A stretch of DNA of 37,523 nucleotides from a virus (IMGVR_UViG_3300006000_000001:1-37523); one strand, 5' to 3'; shown: positions 1-37,469, counted from the first letter of the stretch. Notes: a model not told the origin generated them from the sequence alone. Numbers and translations are program-made.

Positions 1-120
1 GCGTCCTAAATCAGCCTCTGCGGAGCGGATAAAATCAATCTGCTCATCGCTGAGAGTGTAGCTCATCACTTACCCTCCGCGTCGTCTAGTATCTTATCTG
101 CTTGCAGCCACCAGTCATCA
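1..120. repeat. Terminal direct repeat, left copy (identical to 37404..37523). It marks the wrap-around of a circular or terminally redundant 37,403-bp phage genome
   Basis: Read by eye: nt 1..120 (gcgtcctaaatcagcc...ccagtcatca) recur exactly at 37404..37523, and the identity runs to both window edges. Positions 1..66 duplicate the 5' end of CDS 37209..37469. Confidence 0.9.
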
Positions 121-287
121 ATTTGACTGCGTGCAAGCTCGTAATCATCCACCATTATGGTGCCCCTGTGCTGGTGCTCCAGCTCCAGATATGCCCAGGT
201 TGCCTTGTCGGTAAGATTACCGATGACCTCTCGTAGAGAGGTTATATCATCCTCATAGATAGTTAGTGGTTTGTTGCACTGGATCAT
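66..287 (-). CDS. hypothetical early protein, acidic (73 aa)
   Basis: The ATG is preceded by GGAGA. The stop overlaps (TGATG) the start of the junction-spanning ORF. The C-terminal QIDDWW resembles QIDWWG in the 2039..2248 product. No family recognised. Confidence 0.6.
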   Translation of the reverse strand: MIQCNKPLTIYEDDITSLREVIGNLTDKATWAYLELEHQHRGTIMVDDYELARSQIDDWWLQADKILDDAEGK

Positions 288-306
288 GTGTCATCTCCGG
301 GTTTAT

Positions 307-322
307 GGCCCCTTGCGGGGCC
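307..322 (-). promoter_or_regulatory. intercistronic GC hairpin with GNRA-type tetraloop (function unknown)
   Basis: On the transcribed minus strand the sequence reads GGCCCC-GCAA-GGGGCC (6 GC pairs). It lies in the 60-nt gap between two early ORFs and has no U-tract after it. Confidence 0.5.
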
Positions 323-347
323 GGTGCTGATTAAATGGCTCGTTGGA

Positions 348-548
348 TCATTTTATCAGCCACTGATTGAGTTGCAGTTGCTCTATATCTCCTTTGCGGA
401 GATAGTCTTCCCCCACCGCCTGCCAATCGACGTACTTGAGCAAGTTATCCAACAACTCACCTGCGTCCCAATCGTCCATATCGTCATGTCCGATGGTTAT
501 GTGTTTAGCGCACTCGGCTAATGTGCCGTTGTACGTGTGATCACTCAT
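348..548 (-). CDS. hypothetical early protein, strongly acidic (66 aa)
   Basis: GGAGAA lies upstream of the ATG, and the ORF overlaps the stop of the upstream ORF by 8 nt. It has a D/E/W-rich segment (DDMDDWDAGELLDNLL). No family recognised. Confidence 0.55.
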   Translation of the reverse strand: MSDHTYNGTLAECAKHITIGHDDMDDWDAGELLDNLLKYVDWQAVGEDYLRKGDIEQLQLNQWLIK

Positions 549-726
549 GGGTTTCTCCGGGTTGCAAAAGCGGCGTGTGATAAAATATCACTTGATCGGC
601 ATATTTGGTATTTACCACGTCGCCACATCTTGTGGTGGGTACCGCTATCAAGTAGTTAATCCGCTTTACGGCATCCGTCGCCCCGACGATCTCACGTTCG
701 AGCACAAAAAATCGGTCTCTTGCCAT
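541..726 (-). CDS. hypothetical early protein (61 aa)
   Basis: GAGAGG lies upstream of the ATG. The N-terminus RFFVLEREIVGA parallels NYYVIERELVGP of the 1292..1663 product. Confidence 0.55.
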   Translation of the reverse strand: MARDRFFVLEREIVGATDAVKRINYLIAVPTTRCGDVVNTKYADQVIFYHTPLLQPGETHE

Positions 727-744
727 ATTTAGCCTCTCTAGGGG

Positions 745-993
745 TCAGAAATCGCGGGCGTTGAGGACCAGCCAGCCGACATCTCCACGGCTGATAGTCT
801 GGATATTGCGGTTACGTCTCACGCCCGCCTGTGCCGACAGGGCATCCATCCTATTGACTTTGCGGAGCCTTACATCCTTATACCGCTGTAGTGTTTCCGC
901 GAGACTGTAGGTCTCGTAGTCTAGCAGGTACTTTAGCTTGACTTTATCCTCGGTGGTCATGTCATTGATGGTGTTGATTATGCAGTTGGTCAT
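745..993 (-). CDS. hypothetical early protein (82 aa)
   Basis: I trimmed track ORF 745..1128 to the internal ATG 993. The upstream part overlaps 1050..1244 and contains an intergenic hairpin motif. The SD is weak. Confidence 0.5.
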   Translation of the reverse strand: MTNCIINTINDMTTEDKVKLKYLLDYETYSLAETLQRYKDVRLRKVNRMDALSAQAGVRRNRNIQTISRGDVGWLVLNARDF

Positions 994-1024
994 TTGCCTG
1001 GTCTCTGGTTTGATGGTGTTGTGT

Positions 1025-1038
1025 GCCCGTCCATGGGC
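1025..1038 (-). repeat. early-operon hairpin motif, copy 1 (minus-strand GCCC-ATGGAC-GGGC)
   Basis: The plus strand reads gcccgtccatgggc. The motif starts 10 nt after the stop of 1050..1244 and is near-identical to the copies at 1262, 2269 and 2787. Confidence 0.7.
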
Positions 1039-1049
1039 TGGCTTATAGG

Positions 1050-1244
1050 CTACAAGCCGTGATTGATGATGTTGATTGCCCGCTCTCGCAGGCGTTGGAC
1101 CTCGACCAAGTCCTCGCTTATGGACCACTGGCCGTATCCGTATGCAGACTCTATTTTTGATATCATCTTTTGTGCGTCAGTGACGCGCACCTCGATCGCG
1201 TCCATAACATGGCGCAGCTCGTCTTTGGGTGTCTGGTTGGCCAT
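1050..1244 (-). CDS. hypothetical early protein (64 aa), paralogue of the 1660..1896 product
   Basis: The track start is 1259, but I prefer ATG 1244 because AGGAG lies 7 nt upstream. DELRHVMDAIEV...GQWSISEDL aligns with DELRRIIQHIDV...GPWPLSKDL. Confidence 0.55.
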   Translation of the reverse strand: MANQTPKDELRHVMDAIEVRVTDAQKMISKIESAYGYGQWSISEDLVEVQRLRERAINIINHGL

Positions 1245-1261
1245 AGTGGTGCTCCTCATTT

Positions 1262-1275
1262 GCCCGTCCCTGGGC
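1262..1275 (-). repeat. early-operon hairpin motif, copy 2 (minus-strand GCCC-AGGGAC-GGGC)
   Basis: The plus strand reads gcccgtccctgggc. The motif lies in the 47-nt gap between the stop at 1292 and the start at 1244. Confidence 0.7.
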
Positions 1276-1291
1276 TAAAAGTTGATTTGTG

Positions 1292-1663
1292 TCAAGCCGC
1301 TTTGCGGCGTGGACGCTTGCGATCGGCGCGGACACTAAAGGCCATACTACGACCGCGCAGATAGTCTGTGTCGCTACCGGTTAGCCAATGGTTGGTGTAT
1401 CGCCCGAGTGCCTTAACCCCGGTCCACTTGTCGCGGACCGCCTCAACGGCGTCATTGTAGGACTCGTACTCGCCATGCGCCCGGATCGCTACGCCGTCGA
1501 TCTCCCCGACAGGTCCGTCGATCTCGGTGTGCCCATATAGGTGCGGTTGCGTGGTCTCGATCGTGACCCTGCGGCCACCTACTTGTATCCCGGATTCGCG
1601 CCAGTGGCGGGGGATATTGGGGCCAACTAACTCGCGCTCGATAACGTAGTAATTAGTGCTCAT
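1292..1663 (-). CDS. hypothetical early protein (123 aa) with Arg/Lys-rich tail
   Basis: There is an ATGA start/stop overlap with the upstream gene. The N-terminus YYVIERELVGP is shared with the 541..726 product. The C-terminus is RADRKRPRRKAA. Confidence 0.6.
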   Translation of the reverse strand: MSTNYYVIERELVGPNIPRHWRESGIQVGGRRVTIETTQPHLYGHTEIDGPVGEIDGVAIRAHGEYESYNDAVEAVRDKWTGVKALGRYTNHWLTGSDTDYLRGRSMAFSVRADRKRPRRKAA

Positions 1664-1896
1664 TTTGTCTCCACAAGCGCATGGTCGGCCAAGCTGCGAT
1701 CGAGTATGGCTTGGGCAGCCTCACAGAGATTCCGTGTCCACTCCAAATCCTTACTGAGTGGCCACGGCCCCTGCCCGCAGGCGTGGGCTATCGCCTCTAT
1801 GGTTTGGGCCGAGTCTTTAGCGGCAACATCGATGTGCTGGATGATGCGTCTCAGCTCGTCAACATCTGCACGGCAGATCGTCATGGCATCTCTCAT
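1660..1896 (-). CDS. hypothetical early protein (78 aa), paralogue of the 1050..1244 product
   Basis: GAGGAGG lies upstream of the ATG, and there are ATGA overlaps at both ends. Confidence 0.6.
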   Translation of the reverse strand: MRDAMTICRADVDELRRIIQHIDVAAKDSAQTIEAIAHACGQGPWPLSKDLEWTRNLCEAAQAILDRSLADHALVETK

Positions 1897-2036
1897 GTCT
1901 TGACCTCCTCGTCTGATTCGGCCACTTGGGCCAAGGCGTGGCCCCCGGCCTGCATGGCTTCCAGCGCGCCCTCGGTTTCGGCGGCGATTGTCTGCACTCG
2001 ATCCAATACCTTGCTCAATACGCTTTTGGGTGTCAT
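1893..2036 (-). CDS. hypothetical early protein (47 aa)
   Basis: I trimmed the track start (2090) to ATG 2036. GGAGG lies upstream and the ATG follows the upstream stop codon almost directly. Confidence 0.5.
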   Translation of the reverse strand: MTPKSVLSKVLDRVQTIAAETEGALEAMQAGGHALAQVAESDEEVKT

Positions 2037-2038
2037 TG

Positions 2039-2248
2039 TTACCTCGCCTCCTCTCGGAGAGTAGTGATCTGCTCGCGGGCGCCCCACCAATCGATCTGAT
2101 AGCCTTGATCGGCTAAATTATCGGTGATATCGTCGGTGATAAGCCGGATATCCTCGTCGCTCAAGGTGCCTATGCGCTCGCAGTCGTCATAGTCGTTTAG
2201 GGCTGTCAACGTGTATTCTTGGCTCGCGGTGTAGTCTAGGTAGATCAT
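2039..2248 (-). CDS. hypothetical early protein, acidic (69 aa)
   Basis: I use ATG 2248. An alternative TTG at 2296, overlapping the upstream stop as TTGA, would add 16 aa that include the hairpin motif. The C-terminal QIDWWG resembles the 66..287 product. Confidence 0.5.
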   Translation of the reverse strand: MIYLDYTASQEYTLTALNDYDDCERIGTLSDEDIRLITDDITDNLADQGYQIDWWGAREQITTLREEAR

Positions 2249-2268
2249 TTGGGGTTTGCCTTTGTGGT

Positions 2269-2282
2269 GCCCGTCCCTGGGC
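2269..2282 (-). repeat. early-operon hairpin motif, copy 3 (minus-strand GCCC-AGGGAC-GGGC)
   Basis: The plus strand reads gcccgtccctgggc. The motif starts about 10 nt after the stop of 2293..2661. Confidence 0.7.
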
Positions 2283-2292
2283 TGGGTTTGGG

Positions 2293-2661
2293 TCAAATGA
2301 ATCGACCGTAATAGCTGTTAGGGTTGCGGGTCTTGCGCAGATGGTTGCGGACGTTGCGCTCGATGTCCCGGTCCCGCTTGATTGAGTGGATCGCCATCTC
2401 GTCTGCGGTTTCCTGCGCGTATCCGTAAGACTTGTGGTCCGCGCGGATTTTCTTGGCCAGATAGTTGCCCGCCTCCACTCTGGCTTGGCTGGCCGCCTCC
2501 CGTGCCGCCTCTTGATCTGCCTTGGCTTGCGTTTTGGCATTGGCTTCGGCGAGGTGCGCCGCCGCATTAGCGGCGTATTGCGCTTGCTCGGCCATATATT
2601 CCGCCTCGGTCATAATGATCTCATTGCCTTCCTCATCCCAAGATGTGTATGTTTTGCTCAT
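2293..2661 (-). CDS. hypothetical early protein (122 aa), Ala/Gln/Glu-rich helical centre
   Basis: This is the first ORF after promoter 2719..2747. It contains a long AQAKADQEAAREAASQARVEAG-type helix-like segment. No family recognised. Confidence 0.6.
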   Translation of the reverse strand: MSKTYTSWDEEGNEIIMTEAEYMAEQAQYAANAAAHLAEANAKTQAKADQEAAREAASQARVEAGNYLAKKIRADHKSYGYAQETADEMAIHSIKRDRDIERNVRNHLRKTRNPNSYYGRFI

Positions 2662-2718
2662 CGTTTTTTGCTCTCTGTTGTTGGGTTTGGGTGTCTGTCA
2701 TCCCTTACGTTGGATATT

Positions 2719-2747
2719 AGTATATCGAGATGGTAATTTGATGTCAA
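2719..2747 (-). promoter_or_regulatory. sigma70-like promoter (second early-leftward promoter)
   Basis: On the minus strand: TTGACA (2747..2742), 17 nt spacer, TATACT (2724..2719). It lies about 55 nt upstream of ATG 2661. Confidence 0.65.
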
Positions 2748-2786
2748 CTGGTTTTAGACAAAAGATACATGATGTGGGTCAATAAT

Positions 2787-2800
2787 GCCCGTCCTTGGGC
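2787..2800 (-). repeat. early-operon hairpin motif, copy 4 (minus-strand TGCCC-AAGGAC-GGGCA)
   Basis: The plus strand reads gcccgtccttgggc. The motif starts 9 nt after the stop of 2810..3103 and is followed by UUAUUG. Confidence 0.7.
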
Positions 2801-2809
2801 ATCGTCCTA

Positions 2810-3103
2810 TTAGACCGACATGTCGTCCCACTCTAGGCGGTGGCAATCCGGGTGATCGTAATAGCGTAAGTAGCTATCCATGCCGCAGAGCATGATATGC
2901 TTGGCGACCATCCGCACGCGCGTTTCCATCGCGTAGTCCCAAAGCGCCTCCGGGACGAGGTCCTCGTCTAATTCTGCTTTGTAGTCCTCTATTGCGCTGA
3001 GGACTGATCGCTTGATGTCTTGGTTAGTCGTATCTAATGCGATTTGATCGCACAGGATTTCTCGCGCCCGCTCTTGGGATTCGTAGTAATCTAGTTTGGT
3101 CAT
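2810..3103 (-). CDS. first early-leftward gene, hypothetical acidic protein (97 aa)
   Basis: I trimmed track ORF 2810..3349 to ATG 3103, because a strong promoter (3177..3204) and a 5'-UTR hairpin lie inside the longer ORF. Confidence 0.6.
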   Translation of the reverse strand: MTKLDYYESQERAREILCDQIALDTTNQDIKRSVLSAIEDYKAELDEDLVPEALWDYAMETRVRMVAKHIMLCGMDSYLRYYDHPDCHRLEWDDMSV

Positions 3104-3120
3104 GGCTCTGTCTCTCGTTG

Positions 3121-3139
3121 GCCCGCCGCGCTGGCGGGC
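3121..3139 (-). promoter_or_regulatory. 5'-UTR hairpin of the first early transcript
   Basis: The sequence is GCCCGCC-5 nt loop-GGCGGGC (7 GC pairs). It lies between the predicted transcription start (~3170) and ATG 3103. Confidence 0.5.
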
Positions 3140-3176
3140 GGTTGTAATGCTTATTTCCCCGCTGACGTTGGAGATA

Positions 3177-3204
3177 AGTATAACATCAATTGACAAGGTG
3201 TCAA
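3177..3204 (-). promoter_or_regulatory. sigma70-like early-leftward promoter with palindromic operator over the -35
   Basis: On the minus strand: TTGACA (3204..3199), 16 nt spacer, TATACT (3182..3177). A perfect inverted repeat TTGACAaggTGTCAA at 3190..3204 overlaps the -35. Confidence 0.7.
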
Positions 3205-3374
3205 GACATTTTTTGATTTTTTTTTGCATTTTTTTCCCTGCCCAGCGGTCCGGGCGAGCTGACCAGGGCGCATATATATAAGGAGTCGTTTTTTCTTGAC
3301 GCCTGTCTGTAAGACGTTGTAATGTATAGCATTTTGTGGTTATTCCCATTATGTAATCCTGTATAGGAATATTA

Positions 3375-3457
3375 GGAAAATCTGAAGTTGCAAGTCTTTA
3401 AAGTTTGGATGAAAACATAATCCGAATCGGGAAAATCTCGAAAATAATTTAAAGTTT
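3375..3457. repeat. two imperfect direct repeat units (GGAAAATCT ... TTTAAAGTTT) in the AT-rich divergent control region
   Basis: GGAAAATCT occurs at 3375..3383 and 3430..3438. TTTAAAGTTT occurs at 3397..3406 and 3448..3457. A third exact GGAAAATCT lies at 8872..8880. Confidence 0.6.
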
Positions 3458-3487
3458 TCAATTATTTACAAATTTAGAAAATTCTTG

Positions 3488-3517
3488 TTGACAAACCAAG
3501 AAAGTGCGGATTACTAT
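3488..3517 (+). promoter_or_regulatory. sigma70-like rightward promoter for the plus-strand module
   Basis: TTGACA (3488..3493), 18 nt spacer, TACTAT (3512..3517). It lies 30 nt upstream of ATG 3547, which is preceded by AGGGG. Confidence 0.65.
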
Positions 3518-3546
3518 ATGTACAACAATCCAGACAGGGGTAAGTA

Positions 3547-3852
3547 ATGTTACATAGTCGCAACAAGATAGGTGCTTACATCCGGCGGGAAAGACGCCGA
3601 CTTGGCAAGTCCATGCAGTCCTTAGGTGATTGTGTCAGCGTATCGCGGCAATATATATCTCAGATCGAGCTAGGCCAGGTAGCCATACCGGCAGGTAGCG
3701 ATCTGCTTATCGCCTTAGCGGATGCTCTCTGCCTGGACGTAGACGATTTACATGTTAGGGAGGGCCGCCTCCCGGATGACATGGTGCGCAATCTGCGTGA
3801 TGTGGTCCGTGTATACCGCGAGCATCAAGTTAAGGAGCGGATAAGTGCCTAA
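3547..3852 (+). CDS. XRE-family helix-turn-helix transcriptional regulator (101 aa)
   Basis: The HTH signature LGKSMQSLGDCVSVSRQYISQIELGQ is typical of Cro/CI/XRE proteins. It is the first gene of the rightward operon, divergent from the early-leftward promoter. Confidence 0.8.
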   Translation: MLHSRNKIGAYIRRERRRLGKSMQSLGDCVSVSRQYISQIELGQVAIPAGSDLLIALADALCLDVDDLHVREGRLPDDMVRNLRDVVRVYREHQVKERISA

Positions 3853-4177
3853 GATCGAAAAGGTAATCGATTCCTGGTTCAAACTTTGGGACGATTGGGA
3901 CCTCTGGGAGGATTTCGACGAGGACGGTCCGGATGACCCATTGAATGATCTCATCGGAAGGAGAATTGGGAGGAATACAAGCAATATCATCGTAGACAGT
4001 TATGCCTCCTTGCTTAGCGAGGAAGACTATATGACCAATACGGCAAGTCAATGTATTGATGACATATCCAGCTCCGTCAAGATGGAGTATGATCTATACA
4101 TAGATAGAAAAGCCGTTTTGGATGTTGTATTGAATGAGAAAAGACTCTATAGAGAGGATTATGAAAGATATGCCTAA
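3845..4177 (+). CDS. hypothetical protein, very acidic N-terminal half (110 aa)
   Basis: A GTG start overlaps the previous stop. It contains WFKLWDDWDLWEDFDEDGPDDPLNDL. It looks AT-richer than the early-left arm by eye. Confidence 0.5.
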   Translation: MPKIEKVIDSWFKLWDDWDLWEDFDEDGPDDPLNDLIGRRIGRNTSNIIVDSYASLLSEEDYMTNTASQCIDDISSSVKMEYDLYIDRKAVLDVVLNEKRLYREDYERYA

Positions 4178-4436
4178 GCAGGTGTTACTTAACTATGAAG
4201 ATTCGTATACTGTGGCTTACGAGTATATCCTTGGAGCCATGCACGGAGAATGGGTAGATTGGCCGAATGTCGGAGACGACGAATCCGACATTGAAGCTCT
4301 TTTCCACGGGACGGACATTGCGGCATGGAACCTTGATGAGACTTTGGAATCTTGCCACATTGAAATAAACAATAAGGCCCTCACTACGGCCATGCTTGAT
4401 CTGCGTAGTGAGGCGTTAGGGGATAAATATAAATGA
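4161..4436 (+). CDS. hypothetical acidic protein (91 aa)
   Basis: I moved the start to ATG 4161, with AGAGAGGA upstream (track start 4134). Confidence 0.5.
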   Translation: MKDMPKQVLLNYEDSYTVAYEYILGAMHGEWVDWPNVGDDESDIEALFHGTDIAAWNLDETLESCHIEINNKALTTAMLDLRSEALGDKYK

Positions 4437-4717
4437 TAGAAATCAAGAGAACCAGCCGAGTCGGACTGGAGTCTGCGCGATTACGTTTACCTTTGGAGAA
4501 AATGAAAATGATTAAGGACCGCACGAAAGAAGAGTTGGTGAAATTCCGCGATGAGCTGACCGAGGTCTTGAACTTGGTCCGTCAAGACAAGATCAGGATG
4601 TTTTGCTCGGAGAGCACCAGTGCCCTTGATGTGGAGATAGCAAGGGCTGAGTATTTTATTGTCAATGCAATTGGAAGGAAAATTGACAATATGATTGACT
4701 ACAAGGAGGGGAGGTAA
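4433..4717 (+). CDS. hypothetical protein (94 aa)
   Basis: There is an ATGA overlap with the previous stop. The sequence is helical and charged. Confidence 0.55.
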   Translation: MIEIKRTSRVGLESARLRLPLEKMKMIKDRTKEELVKFRDELTEVLNLVRQDKIRMFCSESTSALDVEIARAEYFIVNAIGRKIDNMIDYKEGR

Positions 4718-4721
4718 CGCC

Positions 4722-4970
4722 ATGCACGTTAAAAGGCGACAAGCAATCAAAGATTTTGATCAGGAATGGGACCGTATATTGGATACGGTAGAGGACTTTC
4801 TGACTAGGGTTGAAAAATGGGACGGAGGCTCATCGTTTATCCCTCCGATCAAAATGAGCGAGATTTTTTGGCGTCAATTAACGCCACATCCAAGGACAAC
4901 CGGTCTTGTTATGTCGGTCGAGGTAAAAGAATTCACGACCGGAGGCGTGCGCCGGTTTGAAGAAGATTAG
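4722..4970 (+). CDS. hypothetical protein (82 aa)
   Basis: I moved the start to ATG 4722, preceded by GGAGGGGAGG (track start 4695). Confidence 0.55.
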   Translation: MHVKRRQAIKDFDQEWDRILDTVEDFLTRVEKWDGGSSFIPPIKMSEIFWRQLTPHPRTTGLVMSVEVKEFTTGGVRRFEED

Positions 4971-4981
4971 GACTATTTCTA

Positions 4982-5257
4982 ATGTCATTCAAACGAACTA
5001 AATACCCGAGAATCTACCTGATTGAAATGCCGGGTACGTCCACCGAGATTTCCGGTGAGGTCCGGCGTGAGATCATGGTTGTCAAGTGCAAGCTACACGG
5101 CAGTTACCCGGACGTTAAAAGTGCCCTGGCCGACGCAAATAAAAAATGGTTTAGGATCACCAAGGGTGAGATTCAAGGTGCGTGCCGGATGTCTAGGCTT
5201 TGGGTTTCCGATCGTAAGGAGTCAGACCATGAAGAACAGAAAATATCTCCGTCCTAA
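4982..5257 (+). CDS. hypothetical protein (91 aa)
   Basis: The ORF begins 12 nt after the previous stop. No family recognised. Confidence 0.5.
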   Translation: MSFKRTKYPRIYLIEMPGTSTEISGEVRREIMVVKCKLHGSYPDVKSALADANKKWFRITKGEIQGACRMSRLWVSDRKESDHEEQKISPS

Positions 5258-5414
5258 CCCGACTATGGGCGATGTGCACGAATGGATGGGGGCGTTTTGG
5301 AGAGCGATTGGTCAATTGGAGTGCATGAGCGATCCTGCGTATCGAGATGGATTTACAGATCAGGAAAGGGAATCTGCTCGGGAGCAAGTCATTAAGATTC
5401 AAAGTGAATTTTGA
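5229..5414 (+). CDS. hypothetical protein (61 aa)
   Basis: This is the internal ATG 5229 of track ORF 5022..5414, preceded by AGGAG. Its stop abuts the exonuclease start (TGAtATG). Confidence 0.45.
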   Translation: MKNRKYLRPNPTMGDVHEWMGAFWRAIGQLECMSDPAYRDGFTDQERESAREQVIKIQSEF

Positions 5415-5415
5415 T

Positions 5416-6369
5416 ATGTCCACTGAATATATTAAAACTGAAAGCAAGGAAGAATGGCTTGCGCTACGAGCAAAGGACGTGACCAGCACGGAGTCTGCCG
5501 CTCTGTTCGGGCTCAGCCCCTACCATACGGAATTTGATCTATTCCACCGCAAGCGAGATGGGCGGGTCGTAGAAATACCGGAGAATGAAAGGATGCGGGC
5601 CGGAACGTATCTAGAGCCTGCCATTGCCGAATGGGCATCGGATGAGATCGGCTGCCATGTACAGAGATTGAATGCGTATTGCCGGGACGGGGAAGCGAGG
5701 ATCGGGGCTAGCTTTGACTATCAGATCACGAACGGGAAGCTGGCCGGAAGGATATTGGAGATTAAAAATGTGGCCTTTGACCAACGCTACAAATGGGAAA
5801 ACGAGGAAGGCGAGCTTGAGCCGCCACCGCACATTGAAGTGCAGGTCCAACATCAGTTGGAGCTAACGCAACGGCCTGGTGCCCACATTGCCGTGCTGTT
5901 CGGCGGTAATGATCTTAACCTGATCCCAGTATCGAGAATTCCCAGAATTGGCCTGGGTCTACGGAACCGGATTAAGCGGTTTTGGAGTGATGTTGATTCC
6001 GGGCGTGAGCCGGAGCCGGACTTCGAGCGGGACGCCGATTTTATAACGTCAATCCACCAGATGTCCGGCGATGAAATCCTGAAGGTCGATGAGGATAGCG
6101 AGATATGGTCGCTCATGAAAGGCTATCAGGCCGCCAGGGACAACGCAAAGGCTCACACGGCGTCCGCCGAATCGATCAAGGCCAAGGTACTGCATCTCAT
6201 CGGAGATGGCGTGTGCAAGGTTCTAGGGGGGAATCTAACGCTATCCTGTGGGATGGTGAAGGACACGGAGCCAACCCGGATAACCCAGGATATGATAGGA
6301 AAAACCTATGGAGGAAAGCGTGGGCATAGGAATTTCCGAGTAACCGAGATGAAACCCAATGCCAAATAA
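5416..6369 (+). CDS. YqaJ-type viral recombinase exonuclease (lambda Exo-like, PD-(D/E)XK)
   Basis: The N-terminal TSTESAALFGLSPYHTEFDLFHRK resembles the YqaJ-domain signature, and ILEIKNV fits the E-x-K nuclease motif. The gene lies directly upstream of recT. I moved the start to ATG 5416. Confidence 0.8.
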   Translation: MSTEYIKTESKEEWLALRAKDVTSTESAALFGLSPYHTEFDLFHRKRDGRVVEIPENERMRAGTYLEPAIAEWASDEIGCHVQRLNAYCRDGEARIGASFDYQITNGKLAGRILEIKNVAFDQRYKWENEEGELEPPPHIEVQVQHQLELTQRPGAHIAVLFGGNDLNLIPVSRIPRIGLGLRNRIKRFWSDVDSGREPEPDFERDADFITSIHQMSGDEILKVDEDSEIWSLMKGYQAARDNAKAHTASAESIKAKVLHLIGDGVCKVLGGNLTLSCGMVKDTEPTRITQDMIGKTYGGKRGHRNFRVTEMKPNAK

Positions 6370-7249
6370 AATGATCTCTGCCCAAGCCGAGGATTTACGC
6401 CGCGACCTAGTGCCGGTCGTTAACGGATTCGACAGCGCGTTGCCGGGCAACATAACGGCTAGGCAGTTTGCCCGTTGTGTGGTTACCGCAGCCATGCGCA
6501 GTCCATCCCTATTCGGGTGCGATCGAGCGAGTCTATACCTAGCGTGCCAGAGAGCCGCCGAGGATGGGTTGATGCCGGACGGTGTGGAGGCCGCTATAAT
6601 TCCGTATCAGAAGAAAGCAACCTACGTCCCTATGGTTGGTGGCCTGCTCAAGCGTATCCATAACGCAGGGATCATTGAATGGATCACTGCGCAGAAAATA
6701 ATGGATAAGGATACCTTTCGGTTCGATCCTGCGACCGGGAAGCCGCCAGAGCATATCGTTGACTGGTTCGGCGATCGAGGGAATTTGAGAGGCGTCTATG
6801 CTGTAGCTAAGAAATATCGCAGCAAAAGCGTGTTCTGCGTCGTGCTGAATCGAAAGGAAATCGATGCCGCCAAAGATTTCAGCATGAAGAATAAGCGGGA
6901 CAAGAACAATCCTGATCTACCCTGGAACTCCCGGTATGAGGAAATGGCTTGCAAGACGGCGATTCGACGACTTTACAAGCTCCTGCCTAGTAGCGCGTCC
7001 GTAACTAACATCTTCGTGAACGAGGACGCGCCTTACAACAGCGAGAAGGTAGTTGAAGGCGTGCCCGTCGATACACCACCTACAAAGCCGAGAAAGAGCC
7101 TAGCGGCGGAGATTGTCGAGGCGGAAGCCGGGCCGACACCTGAAGAAGAGAGCACACCTTATCAAGTAGGCCCCGACGACCCAGTGAACGATGAAGAGTT
7201 CTGGAACAACATCGAACCAGAGGTAAACACGAATGCAGATACTCCCTAG
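6359..7249 (+). CDS. recT: RecT-family single-strand annealing protein
   Basis: The central region AEDGLMPDGVEAAIIPYQKKATYVPMVGGLLKRIHNAG and CKTAIRRLYKLLP match the RecT family as I recall it. The gene is paired with the exonuclease and has an acidic Pro/Glu-rich tail. An alternative start is at 6371. Confidence 0.8.
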   Translation: MPNKMISAQAEDLRRDLVPVVNGFDSALPGNITARQFARCVVTAAMRSPSLFGCDRASLYLACQRAAEDGLMPDGVEAAIIPYQKKATYVPMVGGLLKRIHNAGIIEWITAQKIMDKDTFRFDPATGKPPEHIVDWFGDRGNLRGVYAVAKKYRSKSVFCVVLNRKEIDAAKDFSMKNKRDKNNPDLPWNSRYEEMACKTAIRRLYKLLPSSASVTNIFVNEDAPYNSEKVVEGVPVDTPPTKPRKSLAAEIVEAEAGPTPEEESTPYQVGPDDPVNDEEFWNNIEPEVNTNADTP

Positions 7250-7463
7250 TCTAGGGGACACCCTGGCCAGTCTCAGAATTGGCCGGGGAATGACTCAAAT
7301 GGAGCTTGCGGTAAAAACCGGCCTACATCCATCACATATTAGTAACTATGAGCGTGGCACTCACGTCCCTCGTTGTGTAAACCTAATCAAGCTGGCCGAT
7401 GCTTTTGAAGTGAGCACCGAGTACCTACTAAACGCAATGAGGAATGTACCCAATGATCAGTAA
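7233..7463 (+). CDS. XRE-family HTH protein (76 aa)
   Basis: The HTH signature is MTQMELAVKTGLHPSHISNYERG. The ORF overlaps the recT end. Confidence 0.75.
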   Translation: MQILPSLGDTLASLRIGRGMTQMELAVKTGLHPSHISNYERGTHVPRCVNLIKLADAFEVSTEYLLNAMRNVPNDQ

Positions 7464-8100
7464 GCACATAGGGCCAGGCAACGGAAATGTGAATGGCATT
7501 CCATGTGTGCCTGGGCGTATATCTTCTACAAGAAGATCACTTGGGATGTCTGTATTGGAATTAGTAGAGAGATCGCAGTATTCTTCCACCAACTCGATTA
7601 GAAACATAGAAAGCGGAAGAAGAAACCCATCCCTCTCTGGGCTTATGAGTTTGGCCGAGGCTCTAAATGTATCTGTGGAGTACCTGACCGGGGAAGACAG
7701 TGCCAACAAGGTCACCGTGAGGGTGCCGAAGGTCATTCCGAATCCTGAGGTTCCCAGGAATCTCCCAGATATGAAGGTCTTCCGACGTAGGCTTACATCC
7801 GCGCGTGAAGAGCTTGGATACACTAGCCTTGATCTGGCTCAGATGACCTGCCTGTCGGAATCTACCGTGAGGAGCGTCGAGAACGGGGATAGTGGGACAT
7901 CAATCCGTGGCCTTGTATCTCTCGCTATTGCGCTAGGAGTAACAACCGACTACTTGCTGGGTCTCGACCGCATCCAGCCGAGGAAACCGAACAGGCAAGC
8001 AAATGGTAAAGTCGAAAAAGACTTTGGCACTTTGCAACTCGTCGAGCTGCTCAACGAGCTTAGTTCCCGCTGCCAGGAAGTTGCCAGTTCCATGACGTGA
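7444..8100 (+). CDS. tandem double-HTH (2 x XRE domain) DNA-binding protein (218 aa)
   Basis: There are two HTH units, LGMSVLELVERSQYSSTNSIRNIESG and LGYTSLDLAQMTCLSESTVRSVENG. Each is followed by a (L/A)AxALxV(S/T)x(E/D)YL(T/L)G helix. Confidence 0.75.
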   Translation: MYPMISKHIGPGNGNVNGIPCVPGRISSTRRSLGMSVLELVERSQYSSTNSIRNIESGRRNPSLSGLMSLAEALNVSVEYLTGEDSANKVTVRVPKVIPNPEVPRNLPDMKVFRRRLTSAREELGYTSLDLAQMTCLSESTVRSVENGDSGTSIRGLVSLAIALGVTTDYLLGLDRIQPRKPNRQANGKVEKDFGTLQLVELLNELSSRCQEVASSMT

Positions 8101-8122
8101 TCGGGCGCACAGATAAGGTAAT

Positions 8123-8166
8123 AATCCTTTCGTTAGCGATCCCATTACGAAAGGATTTGCCCTTTT
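8123..8166 (+). terminator. stem-loop (weak terminator or attenuator) between the double-HTH gene and ruvC
   Basis: A 10-bp stem, aatcctttcg (8123..8132) with cgaaaggatt (8148..8157), is followed by tgcccTTTT. The U-run is not adjacent to the stem, so it is weak as a terminator. Confidence 0.35.
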
Positions 8167-8186
8167 ACTCTCGTTAGAGAGAGAAA

Positions 8187-8672
8187 ATGAGTAAAGTAAG
8201 AATCCTCGGAATCGACCCAGGATCACGGATTACTGGGTATGGCCTTATCGATGTATCAACAAAAGGGATATATCACGTCCATAGCGGCACTATCGAGTTT
8301 TACAATGATGAGGTATTCCCAACAAGGATTGCCTCTTTCTGTGGAGAGCTATCCGATATTAAAGCGGAATATCTGCCGGACGTTCTCGCCGTAGAAAGCC
8401 TCATTCTGGTTCGTGGTGTTAGCGCGGCCATGAAGATCGCACAGGCGCGCGGGGCGGCTATATGCGGTGTATATAGTTCAAATATGGATTTTGCCGAATA
8501 CACTCCGATGCAGATAAAGAAGGCCGTAGCGGGCACCGGGAAGGCTTCTAAGGCCGATGTGCAGTCAGCCGTTAGGGCGGCTCTCGATCTACACTTTATG
8601 CCGTCAAAAGACGAAGCGGACGCCCTGGCGGTTGCTTTGTGTCATGCCCATGTTCTCCCTGATCTCACCTAA
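8187..8672 (+). CDS. ruvC: crossover junction endodeoxyribonuclease RuvC (Holliday junction resolvase)
   Basis: The sequence aligns by eye with E. coli RuvC along its length: ILGIDPGSRITGYGLI, AVESL...KIAQARGAA, EYTPMQIKKAVAGTGKASKADVQ, DEADALAVALCHAH. Confidence 0.88.
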   Translation: MSKVRILGIDPGSRITGYGLIDVSTKGIYHVHSGTIEFYNDEVFPTRIASFCGELSDIKAEYLPDVLAVESLILVRGVSAAMKIAQARGAAICGVYSSNMDFAEYTPMQIKKAVAGTGKASKADVQSAVRAALDLHFMPSKDEADALAVALCHAHVLPDLT

Positions 8673-8674
8673 CA

Positions 8675-8756
8675 AAAAGAAAGCCCGCTGTTGGCGCAGC
8701 AGGCTTTTTGTGTGATTCCGAACTGGATAGTCGGAAATCTTAATACAAACTTCAGC
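8675..8756 (-). ncRNA. candidate ~80-nt phage-encoded small RNA (no ORF)
   Basis: The region lies between a near-consensus promoter (8762..8789) and the terminator hairpin. It has no AUG in any frame. It contains an internal 6-bp hairpin (8716..8721 with 8731..8736) and an A/U-rich 5' stretch. The ends are estimates. Confidence 0.45.
8682..8715. terminator. bidirectional intrinsic terminator shared by the ruvC operon, the late operon and the candidate sRNA
   Basis: The stem agcccgctg (8682..8690) pairs with cagcaggct (8697..8705) with one mismatch. It is followed by TTTTTGTGTG on the plus strand and by TTCTTTTTG on the minus strand. Confidence 0.7.
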
Positions 8757-8761
8757 TCTCT

Positions 8762-8789
8762 ATTATAGAGAGCGCTCTCAAAAAGTCAA
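8762..8789 (-). promoter_or_regulatory. near-consensus sigma70 promoter embedded in nested palindromes
   Basis: On the minus strand: TTGACT (8789..8784), 16 nt spacer, TATAAT (8767..8762). The palindromes GCTCTCtattataGAGAGC (8755..8773) and GAGAGCGCTCTC (8768..8779) cover the -10 and the spacer. Confidence 0.65.
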
Positions 8790-8932
8790 GACTTTTTTCT
8801 ACCCTTGCCTTTCCCTCGATACCCGTTGGCATAGGCGGCCCTTCCTTGCCGCCCCGCCTGCTCCCTTGTGGGGAAAATCTTTCCGTGATTACCCCATCGG
8901 TATTTGTTTGGACCTAGTTTTCGTACCGGCAT
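8786..8932 (-). CDS. possible 48-aa very basic micro-ORF downstream of the late operon (doubtful)
   Basis: Product: MPVRKLGPNKYRWGNHGKIFPTREQAGRQGRAAYANGYRGKGKGRKKS. The ATG lies 11 nt after the stop at 8944 with no SD. The stop lies inside the -35 of the sRNA promoter. It is below the ORF-track size cutoff. Confidence 0.2.
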   Translation of the reverse strand: MPVRKLGPNKYRWGNHGKIFPTREQAGRQGRAAYANGYRGKGKGRKKS

Positions 8933-8943
8933 AGCGGTTAGAT

Positions 8944-9936
8944 CTACCCGTAGATCGGGAATGGGGCGGTCGGATAAATGCGTATCCGAGTGGATGGCCC
9001 GAAAACTATAGACCGACTCCGACGAGTCGTGTCAACAAGCTCAATCCGAAAGAAGCACCCGTCGATAAGGAAAAAATTCCAGGCATAACGGTCTGTCGTG
9101 TCGAATGGGTCTGCCGGAAGATTGCCGCCTATCGTGTAGTTGATTAGGCCGGTAACATCATGTTCGGCGTCCTCTGTGCGGCCTTCGCGCTTAATTTGGT
9201 CGAAGGGCTTTAGCCCGGACAACTGGTTGCGGCGATCCCGTGCGTCAAGCATATCTCTGGTACGCACCCAATCCATTGTGCTCTGTAGCTCGCCCGTGAT
9301 TTTATTTGAAACCCACCTGCTTAATTTGCCGTTTTCGACTCGGTAAGTATCGTAATATTGAACATACGATAAACTTGGGAACGCCCCAGTATCTTCCCTG
9401 GTATCCACCGGGGACATAGGCCATCCCCAAAAGCTAACTTCACGAATGGTCGGATATGTAAAGGTTAGCGCGCCACCCTGTATCTCAATTTCAACCTTGT
9501 TAAAATAACCCCTAAATCGGTTCTTTGGCGCGCCAATGGCTTTCTCATCTACATCATAATGCAGCTTATGGGTAACGATGTTAATATCTTCATTCATCGC
9601 CTTGAAAAAGGCCGCTTTAAAATCACCAGTTACGTAGACACGGCTGCATCCGTAGGATGGATCATTGTTAATAAACATCCTGGCGCAATGGAATTTGCCG
9701 AAATATGACCAATGGTAATGTGCGCTTTGCTGGTAACTATTTTTTGCGCTTTCAAAACTACCATGAACGGAATGGTACCCGAACCTATACGGGACTGTGG
9801 AATGAATATTCCAGTAATTATCCTGGCTCCCAACGCTAGCGATCGTAAATGACGCATCATCGCTAACCTGTTGCCCCGCAAACCCTGCGGGTGCTTTATA
9901 CGACGGAATCTCAGGTATCAATATTTGATCGTTCAT
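8944..9936 (-). CDS. last late gene: 330-aa protein of unknown function, tandem paralogue of the 9933..10901 product
   Basis: Shared blocks are NRFRGYF/NRLRGTF, EVSFWGWPMSPVD/EVCFWGYPNAPID, ITGLINYT/ITGLIDYT and GCFFRIEL/GCFFRIDL. There is an ATGA overlap with the upstream gene. Confidence 0.8.
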   Translation of the reverse strand: MNDQILIPEIPSYKAPAGFAGQQVSDDASFTIASVGSQDNYWNIHSTVPYRFGYHSVHGSFESAKNSYQQSAHYHWSYFGKFHCARMFINNDPSYGCSRVYVTGDFKAAFFKAMNEDINIVTHKLHYDVDEKAIGAPKNRFRGYFNKVEIEIQGGALTFTYPTIREVSFWGWPMSPVDTREDTGAFPSLSYVQYYDTYRVENGKLSRWVSNKITGELQSTMDWVRTRDMLDARDRRNQLSGLKPFDQIKREGRTEDAEHDVTGLINYTIGGNLPADPFDTTDRYAWNFFLIDGCFFRIELVDTTRRSRSIVFGPSTRIRIYPTAPFPIYG

Positions 9937-10901
9937 AGATAATTCATCGCTTCATAAGGAAATTCATTAGCTTCTTCCGCACCTCGTATGTTCCCGAAAA
10001 AGTGCCGGATCGGTATATCATCGTCATTCTGCGCAAAAGGCAGGGTGGCCCCCCCGTCAAGACGGAGCCGTGTAAATGGAGCCCGGATCGTGGTGCGGGT
10101 GCGGTACCACTTATCAAAAAGATCGATGCGGAAAAAACACCCTGTGATATAGAGGAACCTCCATTTCGAAGCGAAGAACGAAGGGTAATCTATGTCTTCG
10201 GTATAATCGATCAGACCAGTTATTGGAGATCTGTCTGGCTGTGTCGCAGGGATATCCGTGTCATGTTGAGAGATGTCTACGTCAGCTAGACCACTGGCGG
10301 TCTTCCTTCCCTCTGGGTCTTTAGAGTCTTTGGGTCGATAATAATCCTCAATGCGCTTAGTCCAATAGCGATGATAGTGAGTGTCGTTTTTACCCGTGTT
10401 TCGGTACACATCGATTGGGGCATTCGGATAGCCCCAAAAACAAACCTCATGAAACCCAGGGGTTTGGAATTGGTACCAACCTCCAGGTAACCAGATATGA
10501 ATCGTTCCAAAGGTTCCGCGCAAGCGATTCTTGGGGTACTTGCTTTCATCAATCCAGTAAACGCCTAATTTATTTTTAATAGATTCTTCTGGTACATCGC
10601 CTGTCAAGGACAGCTCACGGAAGCTGCCATAAGAATCAATCAATGCAGTGCCATAGTTATTATCATTATTTATCTGGGCGACGATCCGCCGAATATTTCC
10701 GGTTACTTTATTAAGATTACCTTCTGCGGATTCTGTTTTGATATTATAACCATAGGCCCTAGCCGCGCGTAAGCGATAACTATTGCCTGATGTTACCTCC
10801 AAACCATGCGGTCCGACATCAGGTTTGATTTCCCCTTCCATTGGCGGATTGGATACAGCCACCATATGGTTGAAACCTCGGTCTAAAATGACGTGTTCCA
10901 T
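9933..10901 (-). CDS. 322-aa protein of unknown function, tandem paralogue of the 8944..9936 product
   Basis: I set the start at ATG 10901, with AAGG upstream (track GTG 10916). The paralogy blocks are as listed for 8944..9936. Confidence 0.8.
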   Translation of the reverse strand: MEHVILDRGFNHMVAVSNPPMEGEIKPDVGPHGLEVTSGNSYRLRAARAYGYNIKTESAEGNLNKVTGNIRRIVAQINNDNNYGTALIDSYGSFRELSLTGDVPEESIKNKLGVYWIDESKYPKNRLRGTFGTIHIWLPGGWYQFQTPGFHEVCFWGYPNAPIDVYRNTGKNDTHYHRYWTKRIEDYYRPKDSKDPEGRKTASGLADVDISQHDTDIPATQPDRSPITGLIDYTEDIDYPSFFASKWRFLYITGCFFRIDLFDKWYRTRTTIRAPFTRLRLDGGATLPFAQNDDDIPIRHFFGNIRGAEEANEFPYEAMNYL

Positions 10902-31407: not shown

Positions 31408-31436
31408 TTGAGAGTATACCTTGCTTCAAGTACAAT
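31408..31436 (+). promoter_or_regulatory. sigma70-like promoter for the plus-strand orphan gene, fully overlapping the late promoter
   Basis: On the plus strand: TTGAGA (31408..31413), 17 nt spacer, TACAAT (31431..31436). Its -35 overlaps the -10 of the minus-strand promoter, and its -10 overlaps that promoter's -35. Confidence 0.6.
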
Positions 31437-31441
31437 GTAAA
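31413..31441 (-). promoter_or_regulatory. sigma70-like late-operon promoter
   Basis: On the minus strand: TTTACA (31441..31436), 17 nt spacer, TATACT (31418..31413). GGAGGT and ATG 31390 follow. Confidence 0.65.
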
Positions 31442-32893: not shown

Positions 32894-33066
32894 TCCCGCA
32901 CCTTCTCCTCGTCGATAGAACACTCGGTAAAGTACTGCCGGTCCCGGTGCTCGGCCTGCTTGCCTGCGTTGAAGGCGGAAACCGGCCGATGGTAACCCAT
33001 GACTCGCGTCCAGACCTCGCAGCGGGTGCGCTCGTCGTCTTCGAGCTTCGTATAAGCTGGGTACAT
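32878..33066 (-). CDS. stand-alone NrdD-type glycyl-radical domain protein (62 aa)
   Basis: TRVMGYHRPVSAFNAGKQAEHRDR matches the class III ribonucleotide reductase C-terminus as I recall it (R-V-x-G-Y ... F-N-A-G-K-Q-x-E, as in T4 and E. coli NrdD). The ORF contains only this domain. Confidence 0.6.
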   Translation of the reverse strand: MYPAYTKLEDDERTRCEVWTRVMGYHRPVSAFNAGKQAEHRDRQYFTECSIDEEKVRECKTL

Positions 33067-33591: not shown

Positions 33592-33606
33592 TCCCATCCC
33601 TGGGCA
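33592..33606 (-). repeat. degenerate copy of the early hairpin motif (minus-strand TGCCCAGGGATGGGA)
   Basis: It lies in the 149-nt non-coding gap upstream of 33554. The 3' arm is imperfect. Confidence 0.4.
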
Positions 33607-37130: not shown

Positions 37131-37148
37131 AGCCCCATCCTTGGGGCT
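37131..37148 (-). repeat. variant of the early hairpin motif (minus-strand AGCCCC-AAGGAT-GGGGCT)
   Basis: It has a 6-bp stem with the same ANGGAY loop. It lies in the 148-nt gap between 37209 and the initiator start. Confidence 0.5.
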
Positions 37149-37208: not shown

Positions 37209-37469
37209 TTATCCAACATCGTGTGTACCCCCCGATCTCTTATCTGGGAGAGGCTCCCAGAGGACCAACCTGTACACCAGCCGCTTGACGTCTGTGTTGT
37301 AGTCCTGTAGGTGCTGATCTATGTCTGGGCTTTCTGGCCCAGGCGTAGATGCCTCTCGGATTATGATCTCTGCTGCTTCTCGGACGCACGCATTGTAGCG
37401 CGCGCGTCCTAAATCAGCCTCTGCGGAGCGGATAAAATCAATCTGCTCATCGCTGAGAGTGTAGCTCAT
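37209..37469 (-). CDS. hypothetical early protein spanning the genome junction (86 aa)
   Basis: I use ATG 37469 (equivalent to position 66), which forms a TGATG overlap with the stop of 66..287. GGAGGG lies 8 nt upstream. The track start is GTG 37472. Confidence 0.6.
   Translation of the reverse strand: MSYTLSDEQIDFIRSAEADLGRARYNACVREAAEIIIREASTPGPESPDIDQHLQDYNTDVKRLVYRLVLWEPLPDKRSGGTHDVG

Follow-up and report, generated by a model that had tools for sequence, protein, structure and literature searches.

What reads the short hairpin that recurs between the early genes of the viral contig IMGVR_UViG_3300006000_000001? This contig of 37,523 nucleotides, taken from ENA metagenome assembly ERZ27247814 and analysed at its full length (the window), carries in its leftward early operon five copies of a small stem capped by the hexaloop A-N-G-G-A-Y. 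A preliminary description of the same DNA had taken its lead from the boxB hairpin of phage lambda. Here we tentatively propose that the hairpins are binding sites for proteins of the CsrA family (RsmA/RsmE), with the protein of the host as their reader. We regard this as a serious possibility, a little short of probable.

Hairpins between the early genes

The motif GCCCANGGAYGGGC is present exactly four times in the window, always on the minus strand, as the cores of the hairpins hpA to hpD (Table 1). Chance would give 0.01 copies, none of 100 shuffled sequences had four, and an independent repeat search returned the motif as the top direct-repeat family of the early region; hpB and hpD have a repeated 19-nt core, CCAGCCCANGGACGGGCAC, in common. 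The preliminary description had located all four near-identical elements exactly, together with a variant upstream of the gene for an O-like replication initiator (AGCCCC-AAGGAT-GGGGCT), which is hpE. It had also counted a sixth copy, and here the number has to be lowered to five. The 'degenerate' candidate in question (UGCCCAGGGAUGGGA, 33606..33592 on the minus strand) has a 3-bp stem with a probability of at most 0.03; since it does not fold and overlaps a called open reading frame (ORF), it was excluded from the count.

The stems measure 4 bp in hpB, hpC and hpD (-6 kcal/mol), 6 bp in hpE and 5 bp in hpA, where G-U pairing can extend them to 7. By minimum free energy, centroid and ensemble folding, hpA, hpC, hpD and hpE form with a probability of at least 0.97 and expose the GGA of the loop (for hpA, 0.97 with GGA unpaired). 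The hairpin hpB folds in a 71-nt context; in a context of 60 nt on either side, a competing long-range pairing prevails. Stems of 4-7 bp are too short, against a duplex of roughly 20 bp, for the RNase III sites of the T7 early type that had been considered.

The location of the hairpins is restricted as well. All of them lie on the early-gene strand downstream of promoter P1, from which they are presumably transcribed, and they fill five of the seven intergenic gaps from P1 to the initiator gene but none of the approximately 20 later gaps. Within the 521 nt of early intergenic RNA there are five C-ANGGAN-G hairpins with at least four pairs, compared with 0.008 expected and a maximum of two in 5000 dinucleotide shuffles. 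Genome-wide, the transcribed strand holds eight C-ANGGAN-G hairpins (0.72 expected) and the opposite strand none. The five sites are spaced 237-1280 nt apart within coding mRNA, over about 3.1 kb. As to their distance from the preceding stop codon, the 9-24 nt first described is roughly right for the four exact copies. For its part, hpE lies 72 nt before the initiator ATG and about 60 nt past the stop of the called upstream gene, and it is directly behind a stop (7 nt) only if an uncalled mini-ORF of 21 codons is counted. The hairpin hpA is 125 nt from the next start codon; promoter P2 lies between, with its -35 hexamer 39 nt downstream of the hairpin.

A terminator scan called no terminator at any copy and predicted no intrinsic terminator between copies, and a U-tract is absent save for a weak AUUAUU after hpA. 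This bears out the earlier view that the elements are not ordinary terminators. That they are elements of RNA agrees with their confinement to the transcribed strand, and the constancy of the loop supports the claim that they are recognised in a sequence-specific manner.

Two further elements were observed in the same operon. The gap between g10 and g11, which has no ANGGAY hairpin, contains a different one (307-322, minus strand), GGCCCC-GCAA-GGGGCC, with a GNRA tetraloop and without a U-tract. Around hpD, CAACA(C/U)CAUCAA occurs three times (965-976, 1010-1021 and 1063-1074, minus strand; spacing 45-53 nt), from the end of g7 across the intergenic gap into the start of g8. These copies may represent a local duplication or a C/A-rich repeat resembling translation enhancers.

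Table 1. Hairpins and associated features of the early operon, and the matching hairpin in lambda, P22 and HK97
Feature	Coordinates	Strand	Sequence or type	Context
hpA	2784..2803 (core 2787-2800)	minus	gaUGCCC-AAGGAC-GGGCAuu	9 nt past g1 stop
hpB	2269..2282	minus	GCCC-AGGGAC-GGGC	10 nt past g2 stop; 20 nt before g3 ATG
hpC	1262..1275	minus	GCCC-AGGGAC-GGGC	16 nt past g6 stop; 17 nt before g7 ATG; stem probability 1.0
hpD	1025..1038	minus	GCCC-AUGGAC-GGGC	11 nt past g7 stop; 31 nt before g8 ATG; stem probability 0.99
hpE	37131..37148	minus	AGCCCC-AAGGAU-GGGGCU, 6-bp stem	148-nt gap between g12 and initiator gene
g7 Shine-Dalgarno	1252..1257	minus	GAGGAG	its GGA 14 nt downstream of hpC loop GGA
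Promoter P1	3177..3204	minus	TTGACA-N16-TATACT with TG extension; sigma-70-type	drives g1 and the hairpin-bearing transcript
Promoter P2	2719..2747	minus	TTGACA-N17-TATACT; sigma-70-type	downstream of hpA
Early genes g1-g11	66..3103	minus	orphan proteins, 47-123 aa	
g12	37209-37469	minus		early operon continued past the circular junction
O-like initiator gene	36002-37060	minus		continuation of the operon after g12
Lambda hairpin (L227)	NC_001416, 44518-44533		UUGCC-ACGGAU-GGCAA	
P22 hairpin (L228)	37818-37833		UUGCC-ACGGAU-GGCAA	
HK97 hairpin (L270)	35828-35843		UUGCC-ACGGAU-GGCAA	

Match to the CsrA recognition hairpin

The recognition element of the CsrA family has been defined in several ways. 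In vitro selection (SELEX) yielded the consensus RUACARGGAUGU, with ACA and GGA invariant; of the 55 selected RNAs, 44 had six-nucleotide loops with AC/GU closure, and most stems did not exceed 4 bp. Structures of RsmE-RNA complexes contain an ANGGAN hexaloop, and the RsmE consensus is (A/U)CANGGANG(U/A). CsrB repeats CAGGA(U/A/C)G in hairpin loops, with roughly 18 elements in a single small RNA, and crosslinking and immunoprecipitation located A(N)GGA in apical loops. Moreover, one CsrA dimer can bridge two sites 10-63 nt apart, as at glgC.

The hairpins of the window agree closely with this element. Their loops, AAGGAC, AGGGAC (twice), AUGGAC and AAGGAU, are all A-N-G-G-A-Y hexaloops, and an apical GGA is exposed in all five copies, for hpB in local context only. 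A C-G pair closes every loop. The next pair out is also C-G, compared with A-U/U-A in the RsmE and SELEX consensus, and stems of 4-6 bp fit the short-stem SELEX ligands. In hpE, loop and closing pair together (CAAGGAUG) are the core of the SELEX consensus. The specificity of CsrA thus fits every fixed position of the hairpins as well as the free one, and CsrA is the only known factor that does so, which makes binding by CsrA the best explanation. The preliminary description, which had a translational operator among its alternatives, did not identify a C-ANGGAN-G loop on a short stem with the CsrA/Rsm consensus hairpin. Since the genome encodes no CsrA homologue, any binder of this family must be that of the host.

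At one site the arrangement recalls glgC more specifically. The GGA of the hpC loop and that of the g7 Shine-Dalgarno sequence are separated by 14 nt, which is within the bridging range, so that the latter is a possible second, low-affinity CsrA site in a glgC-like pair. Other GGA triplets are found 14-40 nt upstream of hpA and hpE.

Several additional GGA-containing sites were noted elsewhere on the minus strand. The sequence AUACAAGGAUGU at 33445-33456, some 100 nt into an ORF (33066-33554, 162 aa), matches RUACARGGAUGU at 12 of 12 positions, where about 0.02 such matches are expected in the genome; its hairpin is predicted with a probability of only about 0.6. Two more C-ANGGAN-G hairpins are in coding sequence (30168-30181 and 36682-36695). 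The segment 8795-8880, 3′ of the last late gene, is GGA-rich (AAGGGAG, CAAGGAAGG, GAGGGAAAGG) and includes a hairpin (8834-8853), GGCGGC-AAGGAAGG-GCCGCC, that displays GGA in an 8-nt loop. The latter may be another Csr-type site or a coincidence.

The same hairpin class in other phages

The hairpin is not confined to the window. A scan of IMG/VR with the 16-mer AGCCCANGGACGGGCA gave 62 single matches, and several of the matched loci carry arrays of hairpins with differing stems, on the gene strand, between genes and just past stop codons. Locus L206 (43% G+C), beside a helicase gene, has CUGCC-AAGGAC-GGCAG, UGCC-ACGGAU-GGCA, UAGC-AGGGAC-GCUA and GCCC-AAGGAC-GGGC at 5, 6, 17 and 7 nt past stops, respectively. 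There are three copies in L169 (64% G+C), beside Erf and exonuclease genes, one of them with a downstream flank like that of hpB. L195 has AGCCC-AAGGAU-GGGCU twice, and four further lineages carry the exact motif 7-14 nt past stops. L206 and L194 are 84-92% identical; in their UAGC hairpins a single base is changed, G versus U at loop position 2, and the downstream flank has diverged. L165 and L195 are prophages of the Providencia/Proteus type; megablast and blastn searches with L206 and L169 against GenBank phages gave no match, and the proteins of these two loci bear no host signal. The hairpin-bearing phages have no detectable sequence similarity to the early region of the window.

The lambdoid Providencia phage PSTNGR2lys (MW145137.1; L226) has three of the hairpins in its leftward early operon, one of which is followed by ACAGGAGAUAGAUAUG, which places a GGA-containing Shine-Dalgarno sequence just downstream. 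The same phage has canonical nutL and nutR sites (CGCTCTTTAACA, a short spacer and GCGCU-GAAAA-AGCGC) and an N protein with an N-terminal Arg-rich motif, and AGCCC-ACGGAU-GGGCU begins immediately past the stop codon of N. The coexistence of nut sites and N with the hairpin indicates that the ANGGAY hairpin is distinct from boxB. We also observed on the minus strand of this phage an unannotated second N-like ORF at about 9650-9843 (MNSKQRWNLKRREAW...SSEFGVTAR*), and, at 9630-10583, a repeat of about 40 nt (GAGTTCGGGGTNACGGCGAGATAA plus the hairpin) on both sides of an opposite-strand gene insertion, which has the appearance of a duplication at the site where a moron was inserted.

One and the same hairpin is present in lambda, P22 and HK97 (Table 1), where it follows the stop of Q (gene 23) by 8 nt and precedes the -35 hexamer of the late promoter by 18 nt. 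None of the three records annotates it. Phage 933W, which carries a different Q, has no such hairpin.

When 26 intergenic instances were pooled, they comprised 15 distinct stems with A1, GGA and the C-G closure fixed. All four bases are found at loop position 2, but only C or U at position 6; AAGGA accounts for 14 of the 26 loops, more than any other sequence, and the other 12 have G, U or C at position 2. Outside the window, the hairpins start 0-19 nt past stops. The interval to the next start codon ranges between 13 and about 200 nt. The pooled hairpins had been chosen for pairing, which makes a count of covariation circular, and a test based on the loop octamer was used instead. At least three extra flanking pairs accompany the octamer C-ANGGAY-G in 9 of 19 occurrences on the intergenic gene strand. 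In coding sequence the proportion is 13 of 145 (p = 1e-4), and among control octamers it is 2 of 36 (p = 5e-4); purine-ending loops gave 0 of 13. A loop that stays constant as the stems change argues for RNA rather than duplex DNA as the form that is recognised, and its presence in phages without detectable homology to the early region of the window favours a reader that is widely conserved over a protein particular to one phage. The hosts that can be identified, Providencia/Proteus and E. coli/Salmonella, are Enterobacterales with CsrA.

Alternative explanations

A number of observations weigh against binding by CsrA. Classical CsrA sites are in 5′ leaders, where they overlap the Shine-Dalgarno sequence, whereas these hairpins are 7-16 nt past stops and 17-125 nt before the next start, and hpA is upstream of a promoter. 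Such a tight tie to the upstream stop, and not to the downstream ribosome-binding site, is atypical of CsrA. There is no second GGA within 63 nt of hpB or hpD. Loop position 6 is always a pyrimidine (purine-ending loops are absent from intergenic hairpins, 0 of 13); this is stricter than the CsrA consensus and could reflect another reader. With five sites in about 3.1 kb, the array is far sparser than the sponges CsrB and RsmZ. The host is probably one of the Proteobacteria, a group in which some classes, and nearly all Betaproteobacteria, have no CsrA. In a motif-blind sample of lambdoid phages of E. coli and Salmonella, we found the single Q-linked hairpin only, and none in 933W, so that the link to CsrA-positive hosts is no more than suggestive. 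Finally, the intergenic calls in foreign loci come from a simple ORF heuristic.

The tie to the stop codon suggests a first alternative, which we consider unlikely but worth keeping in mind. The ribosome, or another conserved host factor, might read the hairpins: a GGA loop at the edge of the terminating ribosome could capture the post-termination 30S subunit or the anti-Shine-Dalgarno sequence, promoting or tuning re-initiation on the next cistron or modulating termination. The distance from stop to stem is tight (7-16 nt in the window, 0-19 nt elsewhere) and that to the next start variable, and recurrence across unrelated phages suggests a universal factor. The commonest loop sequence, AAGGA, is complementary to the 3′ end of 16S rRNA. 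On the other hand, position 2 is free, which in the 12 instances without A leaves GGA alone for anti-Shine-Dalgarno pairing, and G never follows GGA, contrary to expectation for a Shine-Dalgarno sequence (GGAGG). The invariant A1 and the C-G closure are left unexplained, start codons are beyond Shine-Dalgarno-type spacing, and what comes after hpA and the lambda Q hairpin is a promoter rather than a coupled cistron. From its position at the edge of a terminating ribosome, the hairpin could nevertheless work through translation, whether or not CsrA takes part.

Alternatively, the phage itself may supply the reader, an RNA-binding protein or endoribonuclease of the RegA, coat-protein or RegB type that times the shut-off or processing of early mRNA. 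T4 provides precedents: RegB cuts GGAG in early intergenic regions, and RegA is a translational operator protein. The early proteins are all orphans of unknown function, and one of them, g6, is basic (pI 9.3) with an Arg-rich C-terminal tail, RADRKRPRRKAA; its stop codon precedes hpC. We nonetheless consider this quite unlikely. The same loop and geometry are found in phages without detectable homology to the early region of the window, including the well-studied lambda, P22 and HK97, and a phage-specific binder would need to have arisen repeatedly with identical specificity. No candidate has a recognisable RNA-binding fold: the AlphaFold model of g6 (pLDDT 37) is unusable, and exhaustive HMMER searches of 1.8 billion representative proteins with g6 gave no homologue, only spurious matches to repeat proteins.

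The hairpins might also have no binder at all, serving as structural punctuation that shields the upstream cistron from 3′ exonucleases or causes weak pausing or termination, and resembling one another through duplication or recombination at gene boundaries, where such 'boundary sequences' would mark points of exchange between phage modules. Their location right behind stop codons and the A/U-rich tracts after hpA and several foreign copies accord with this idea. So do the signs of rearrangement: when L206 and L194 are compared, the GCCC hairpin is the point at which unrelated upstream genes give way to a conserved downstream flank; the opposite-strand gene insertion of PSTNGR2lys is bracketed by two copies that are both preceded by the same 24-nt repeat; hpB and hpD share their 19 nt; and another early gap holds the GNRA hairpin described above (322..307). 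However, a 4-bp stem of -6 kcal/mol is ill suited to stop an exonuclease or to terminate transcription, and a U-tract is lacking in most copies. Nor does punctuation explain an invariant A-GGA-Y loop with C-G closure over 15 stems and without a single purine-ending loop, and the four different stems in one locus (L206) are not explicable by common descent. We therefore regard this explanation, too, as rather improbable.

Recognition at the level of DNA, which the preliminary description had listed among its alternatives, is very unlikely. Here the GCCC-N6-GGGC palindromes would bind a dimeric protein of phage or host (a repressor, initiator or nucleoid protein), or would be extruded as hairpins in single-stranded DNA. 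The arms are indeed palindromic, the phage has three helix-turn-helix proteins and the O-like initiator, and hpA and the Q hairpin of lambda and P22 lie 18-39 nt upstream of a promoter -35. Yet all copies have one orientation relative to transcription and an asymmetric conserved centre, four of the five are away from promoters, and hpE alters the spacing of the GCCC and GGGC arms. Elsewhere the stems are wholly different and the centre is kept, the opposite of half-site logic. The palindromes at early promoters are different ones, TTGACA-N3-TGTCAA and TTCTTG-N9-CAAGAA. A reading of the hairpins as iterons was likewise rejected: the copies are dispersed, and the initiator gene has its own unrelated AT-rich/(AG)n repeat cluster (~36690-36850).

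Finally, the lead of the preliminary description, boxB-like nut hairpins for an N-type antiterminator, drew on the likeness of the GCCC/GGGC stem to that of lambda boxB (GCCCU/AGGGC), to which the Arg-rich tail of g6 may be added, but it is scarcely credible and largely refuted by a transcribed strand that has neither a GCTCTT core nor a one-mismatch boxA (CGCTCTT(T)A) in the early region, a hexaloop ANGGAY instead of a GNRA-like pentaloop, five sites over about 3.1 kb instead of one promoter-proximal site, the lack of intervening terminators, and PSTNGR2lys, where nutL, nutR and N stand alongside the hairpin as a separate element.

Possible consequences of CsrA binding

If CsrA is the reader, its action may be pictured as follows. 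Transcription from the sigma-70-type promoters P1 and P2 would place the hairpins in the early polycistronic mRNA, host CsrA-family dimers would dock on them, and expression of the flanking early cistrons would thereby become coupled to the Csr/Rsm state of the host. At g7, CsrA may bridge hpC to the GGA-containing Shine-Dalgarno sequence and repress translation, as it does at glgC. At the other sites it might act on mRNA stability, on access of Rho or on ribosome loading onto C/A-rich leaders. A secondary possibility is that an abundant early mRNA with five high-affinity sites would titrate CsrA. Repression of g7, stabilisation, control of Rho access and titration are all candidate effects.

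It is possible, though rather doubtful, that stop-proximal ANGGAY hairpins constitute an unrecognised class of phage cis-elements linking early and regulatory transcripts to the host Csr/Rsm network. Phages could use such elements for sensing the physiological state of the host, for protecting or timing early messages, or for soaking up CsrA. The window phage, with five sites, is the richest example. Phage-encoded csrA genes and proteins are documented. In the literature searched there was no report of phage transcripts with arrays of CsrA-type hairpins, nor of the lambda hairpin after Q.

If CsrA does bind, phages would have a new way to read or manipulate a global regulator of the host, one that also controls CRISPR-Cas, motility and metabolism, and the unannotated conserved hairpin beside Q in lambda, P22 and HK97 would gain a function. 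The idea is testable at once in the standard E. coli and Salmonella systems of lambda and P22. If CsrA does not bind, a constant loop over 15 stems near stops would point to an unknown reader of mRNA 3′ of cistrons.

Relatives and host

No close relative of the window phage was found in the collections searched. Searches of IMG/VR for related loci with the initiator, g1 or the large terminase (TerL) as single queries gave nothing, and g2 and the initiator have no homologue among 5.8 billion proteins. Of ten window proteins, eight form singleton clusters, one is a sequence not in the collection, and the cluster of the tail fibre adds only short unrelated fragments. An apparent second portal-bearing contig proved to be the same contig in two sources. 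As a control, scanning generic metagenome contigs with the 19-nt core yielded 41 single exact matches, on G+C-rich contigs and nearly all within ORFs; none was related to the window.

More distant relatives of TerL, at about 50% identity, define 80 IMG/VR loci and 79 genome loci (~2 Mb), largely Bartonella prophages and further loci with no host assigned. There is no enrichment of the hairpin in these loci (0.63 per genome-equivalent, both strands together), and only 1 of their 1037 stop-proximal hexaloop hairpins has an ANGGAN loop, which makes the hairpin specific to the lineage and not a family trait. One candidate member from this set was rejected. L084, a 41-kb TerL-related contig from a metagenome-assembled genome labelled 'Proteobacteria', has GCGCCA/ACGCCA origin iterons inside its initiator gene (3140-3310) that form hairpins of the type CGCC-ACGGAU-GGCG by chance. 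The case calls for caution, as look-alikes with an ANGGA loop can be origin repeats.

The portal, TerL, RecT and tail proteins match phages of Alpha-, Beta- and Gammaproteobacteria, cyanobacteria and Flavobacterium at 24-45% identity, and in the genome scan Bartonella predominated, at 43%. These matches are ambiguous as to the host of the window phage, which probably belongs to the Proteobacteria.

Gene map, promoters and other features

The first and last 120 bases of the contig are identical, which indicates a circular contig of about 37.4 kb. It encodes the gene set of a tailed phage: SU10-like portal, capsid and adaptor proteins, a large terminase, the O-like replication initiator, a RecE/RecT pair, RuvC and three helix-turn-helix regulators. 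Scans of the window found neither tRNAs nor a phage RNA polymerase, and an Rfam search returned no family at the gathering threshold or at E <= 10. The minus strand carries nearly all genes, apart from a rightward block at 3547-8672, and a divergent control region (~3104-3546) separates this block from the leftward early operon. The products of g1-g12 (47-123 aa) belong to no Pfam family and have no homologues in the collections searched. Two of these orphans, g6 (1292-1663) and g9 (541-726), share an N-terminal motif (MSTNYYVIERELVG, MARDRFFVLEREIVG) and may be paralogues.

P1 and P2 are strong promoters with similar initial transcribed sequences (TCCAACGT), and the TTGACA-N3-TGTCAA palindrome that overlaps P1 is likely an operator. 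In the public gene call, g1 is an ORF of 179 aa (2810-3349) that includes P1 and a 5′-untranslated-region hairpin (3121-3139). As P1 would then lie inside the gene, the true start of g1 is most likely at 3103 (97 aa).

Other features of the minus strand concern later genes. A site at 31413-31441, TTTACA-N17-TATACT, has a -10 hexamer identical to that of P1 and P2 and lies in the gap upstream of a small-terminase-like gene; it may serve as a middle or late promoter. At 8789..8762 there is a strong promoter, TTGACT-N16-TATAAT, and about 55 nt beyond it a strong intrinsic terminator (8707..8680), so that 8680-8789 is predicted to encode a small RNA (about 75-80 nt) that converges on the end of the RuvC gene; it has a fold z-score of -2.9 and no Rfam match. 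Inside the initiator gene, the segment 36690-36850 combines AT-rich sequence, (AG)n/(CT)n inverted repeats and 24-nt direct repeats, and is probably the replication origin, as in lambda.

Comparison with known systems

In the hairpins of the window, a recognition element that is already known takes on a new setting and a new geometry. They resemble the CsrA/RsmA/RsmE hairpins of the glgC leader and of the CsrB and RsmZ stem-loops in the A-N-G-G-A-N loop, the C-G closure and the 4-6-bp stem; hpE and the lambda hairpin both have the core C-A-R-G-G-A-U-G exactly, and hpC, with a GGA Shine-Dalgarno sequence 14 nt further on, mimics the dual-site layout of glgC. They differ in that they follow successive stops instead of covering a Shine-Dalgarno sequence in a 5′ leader, have G+C-rich GCCC/GGGC stems where the SELEX consensus has ACA/UGU flanks, admit only a pyrimidine as the last loop base, and occur in phage mRNA, where binding is putative.

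Like the Csr/Rsm sponges (CsrB, CsrC and RsmX/Y/Z) and the CsrA decoys borne on mRNA, the early transcript would carry several GGA hairpins on one abundant RNA. CsrB, however, packs its roughly 18 elements into one small RNA, whereas the window distributes five over about 3.1 kb of coding mRNA, and the array has no dedicated promoter or terminator and no Rfam match. With the lambda nut site (boxA plus boxB, bound by N), the element shares a short G+C-rich hairpin in an early transcript and a similar stem; it differs in lacking boxA, in its ANGGAY hexaloop in place of the GAAAA/GAAGA pentaloop, and in its five copies per operon.

Short asymmetric GGA or GGAG motifs also occur as intergenic repeats in other phages, namely the SAS/ESAS elements of Cluster K mycobacteriophages and the RegB sites of T4, which are presumed to act on translation or mRNA fate. 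Those motifs are at, or overlap, the downstream ribosome-binding site and belong to single lineages, whereas the element described here is tied to the upstream stop, is defined by its hairpin loop and recurs in unrelated phages.

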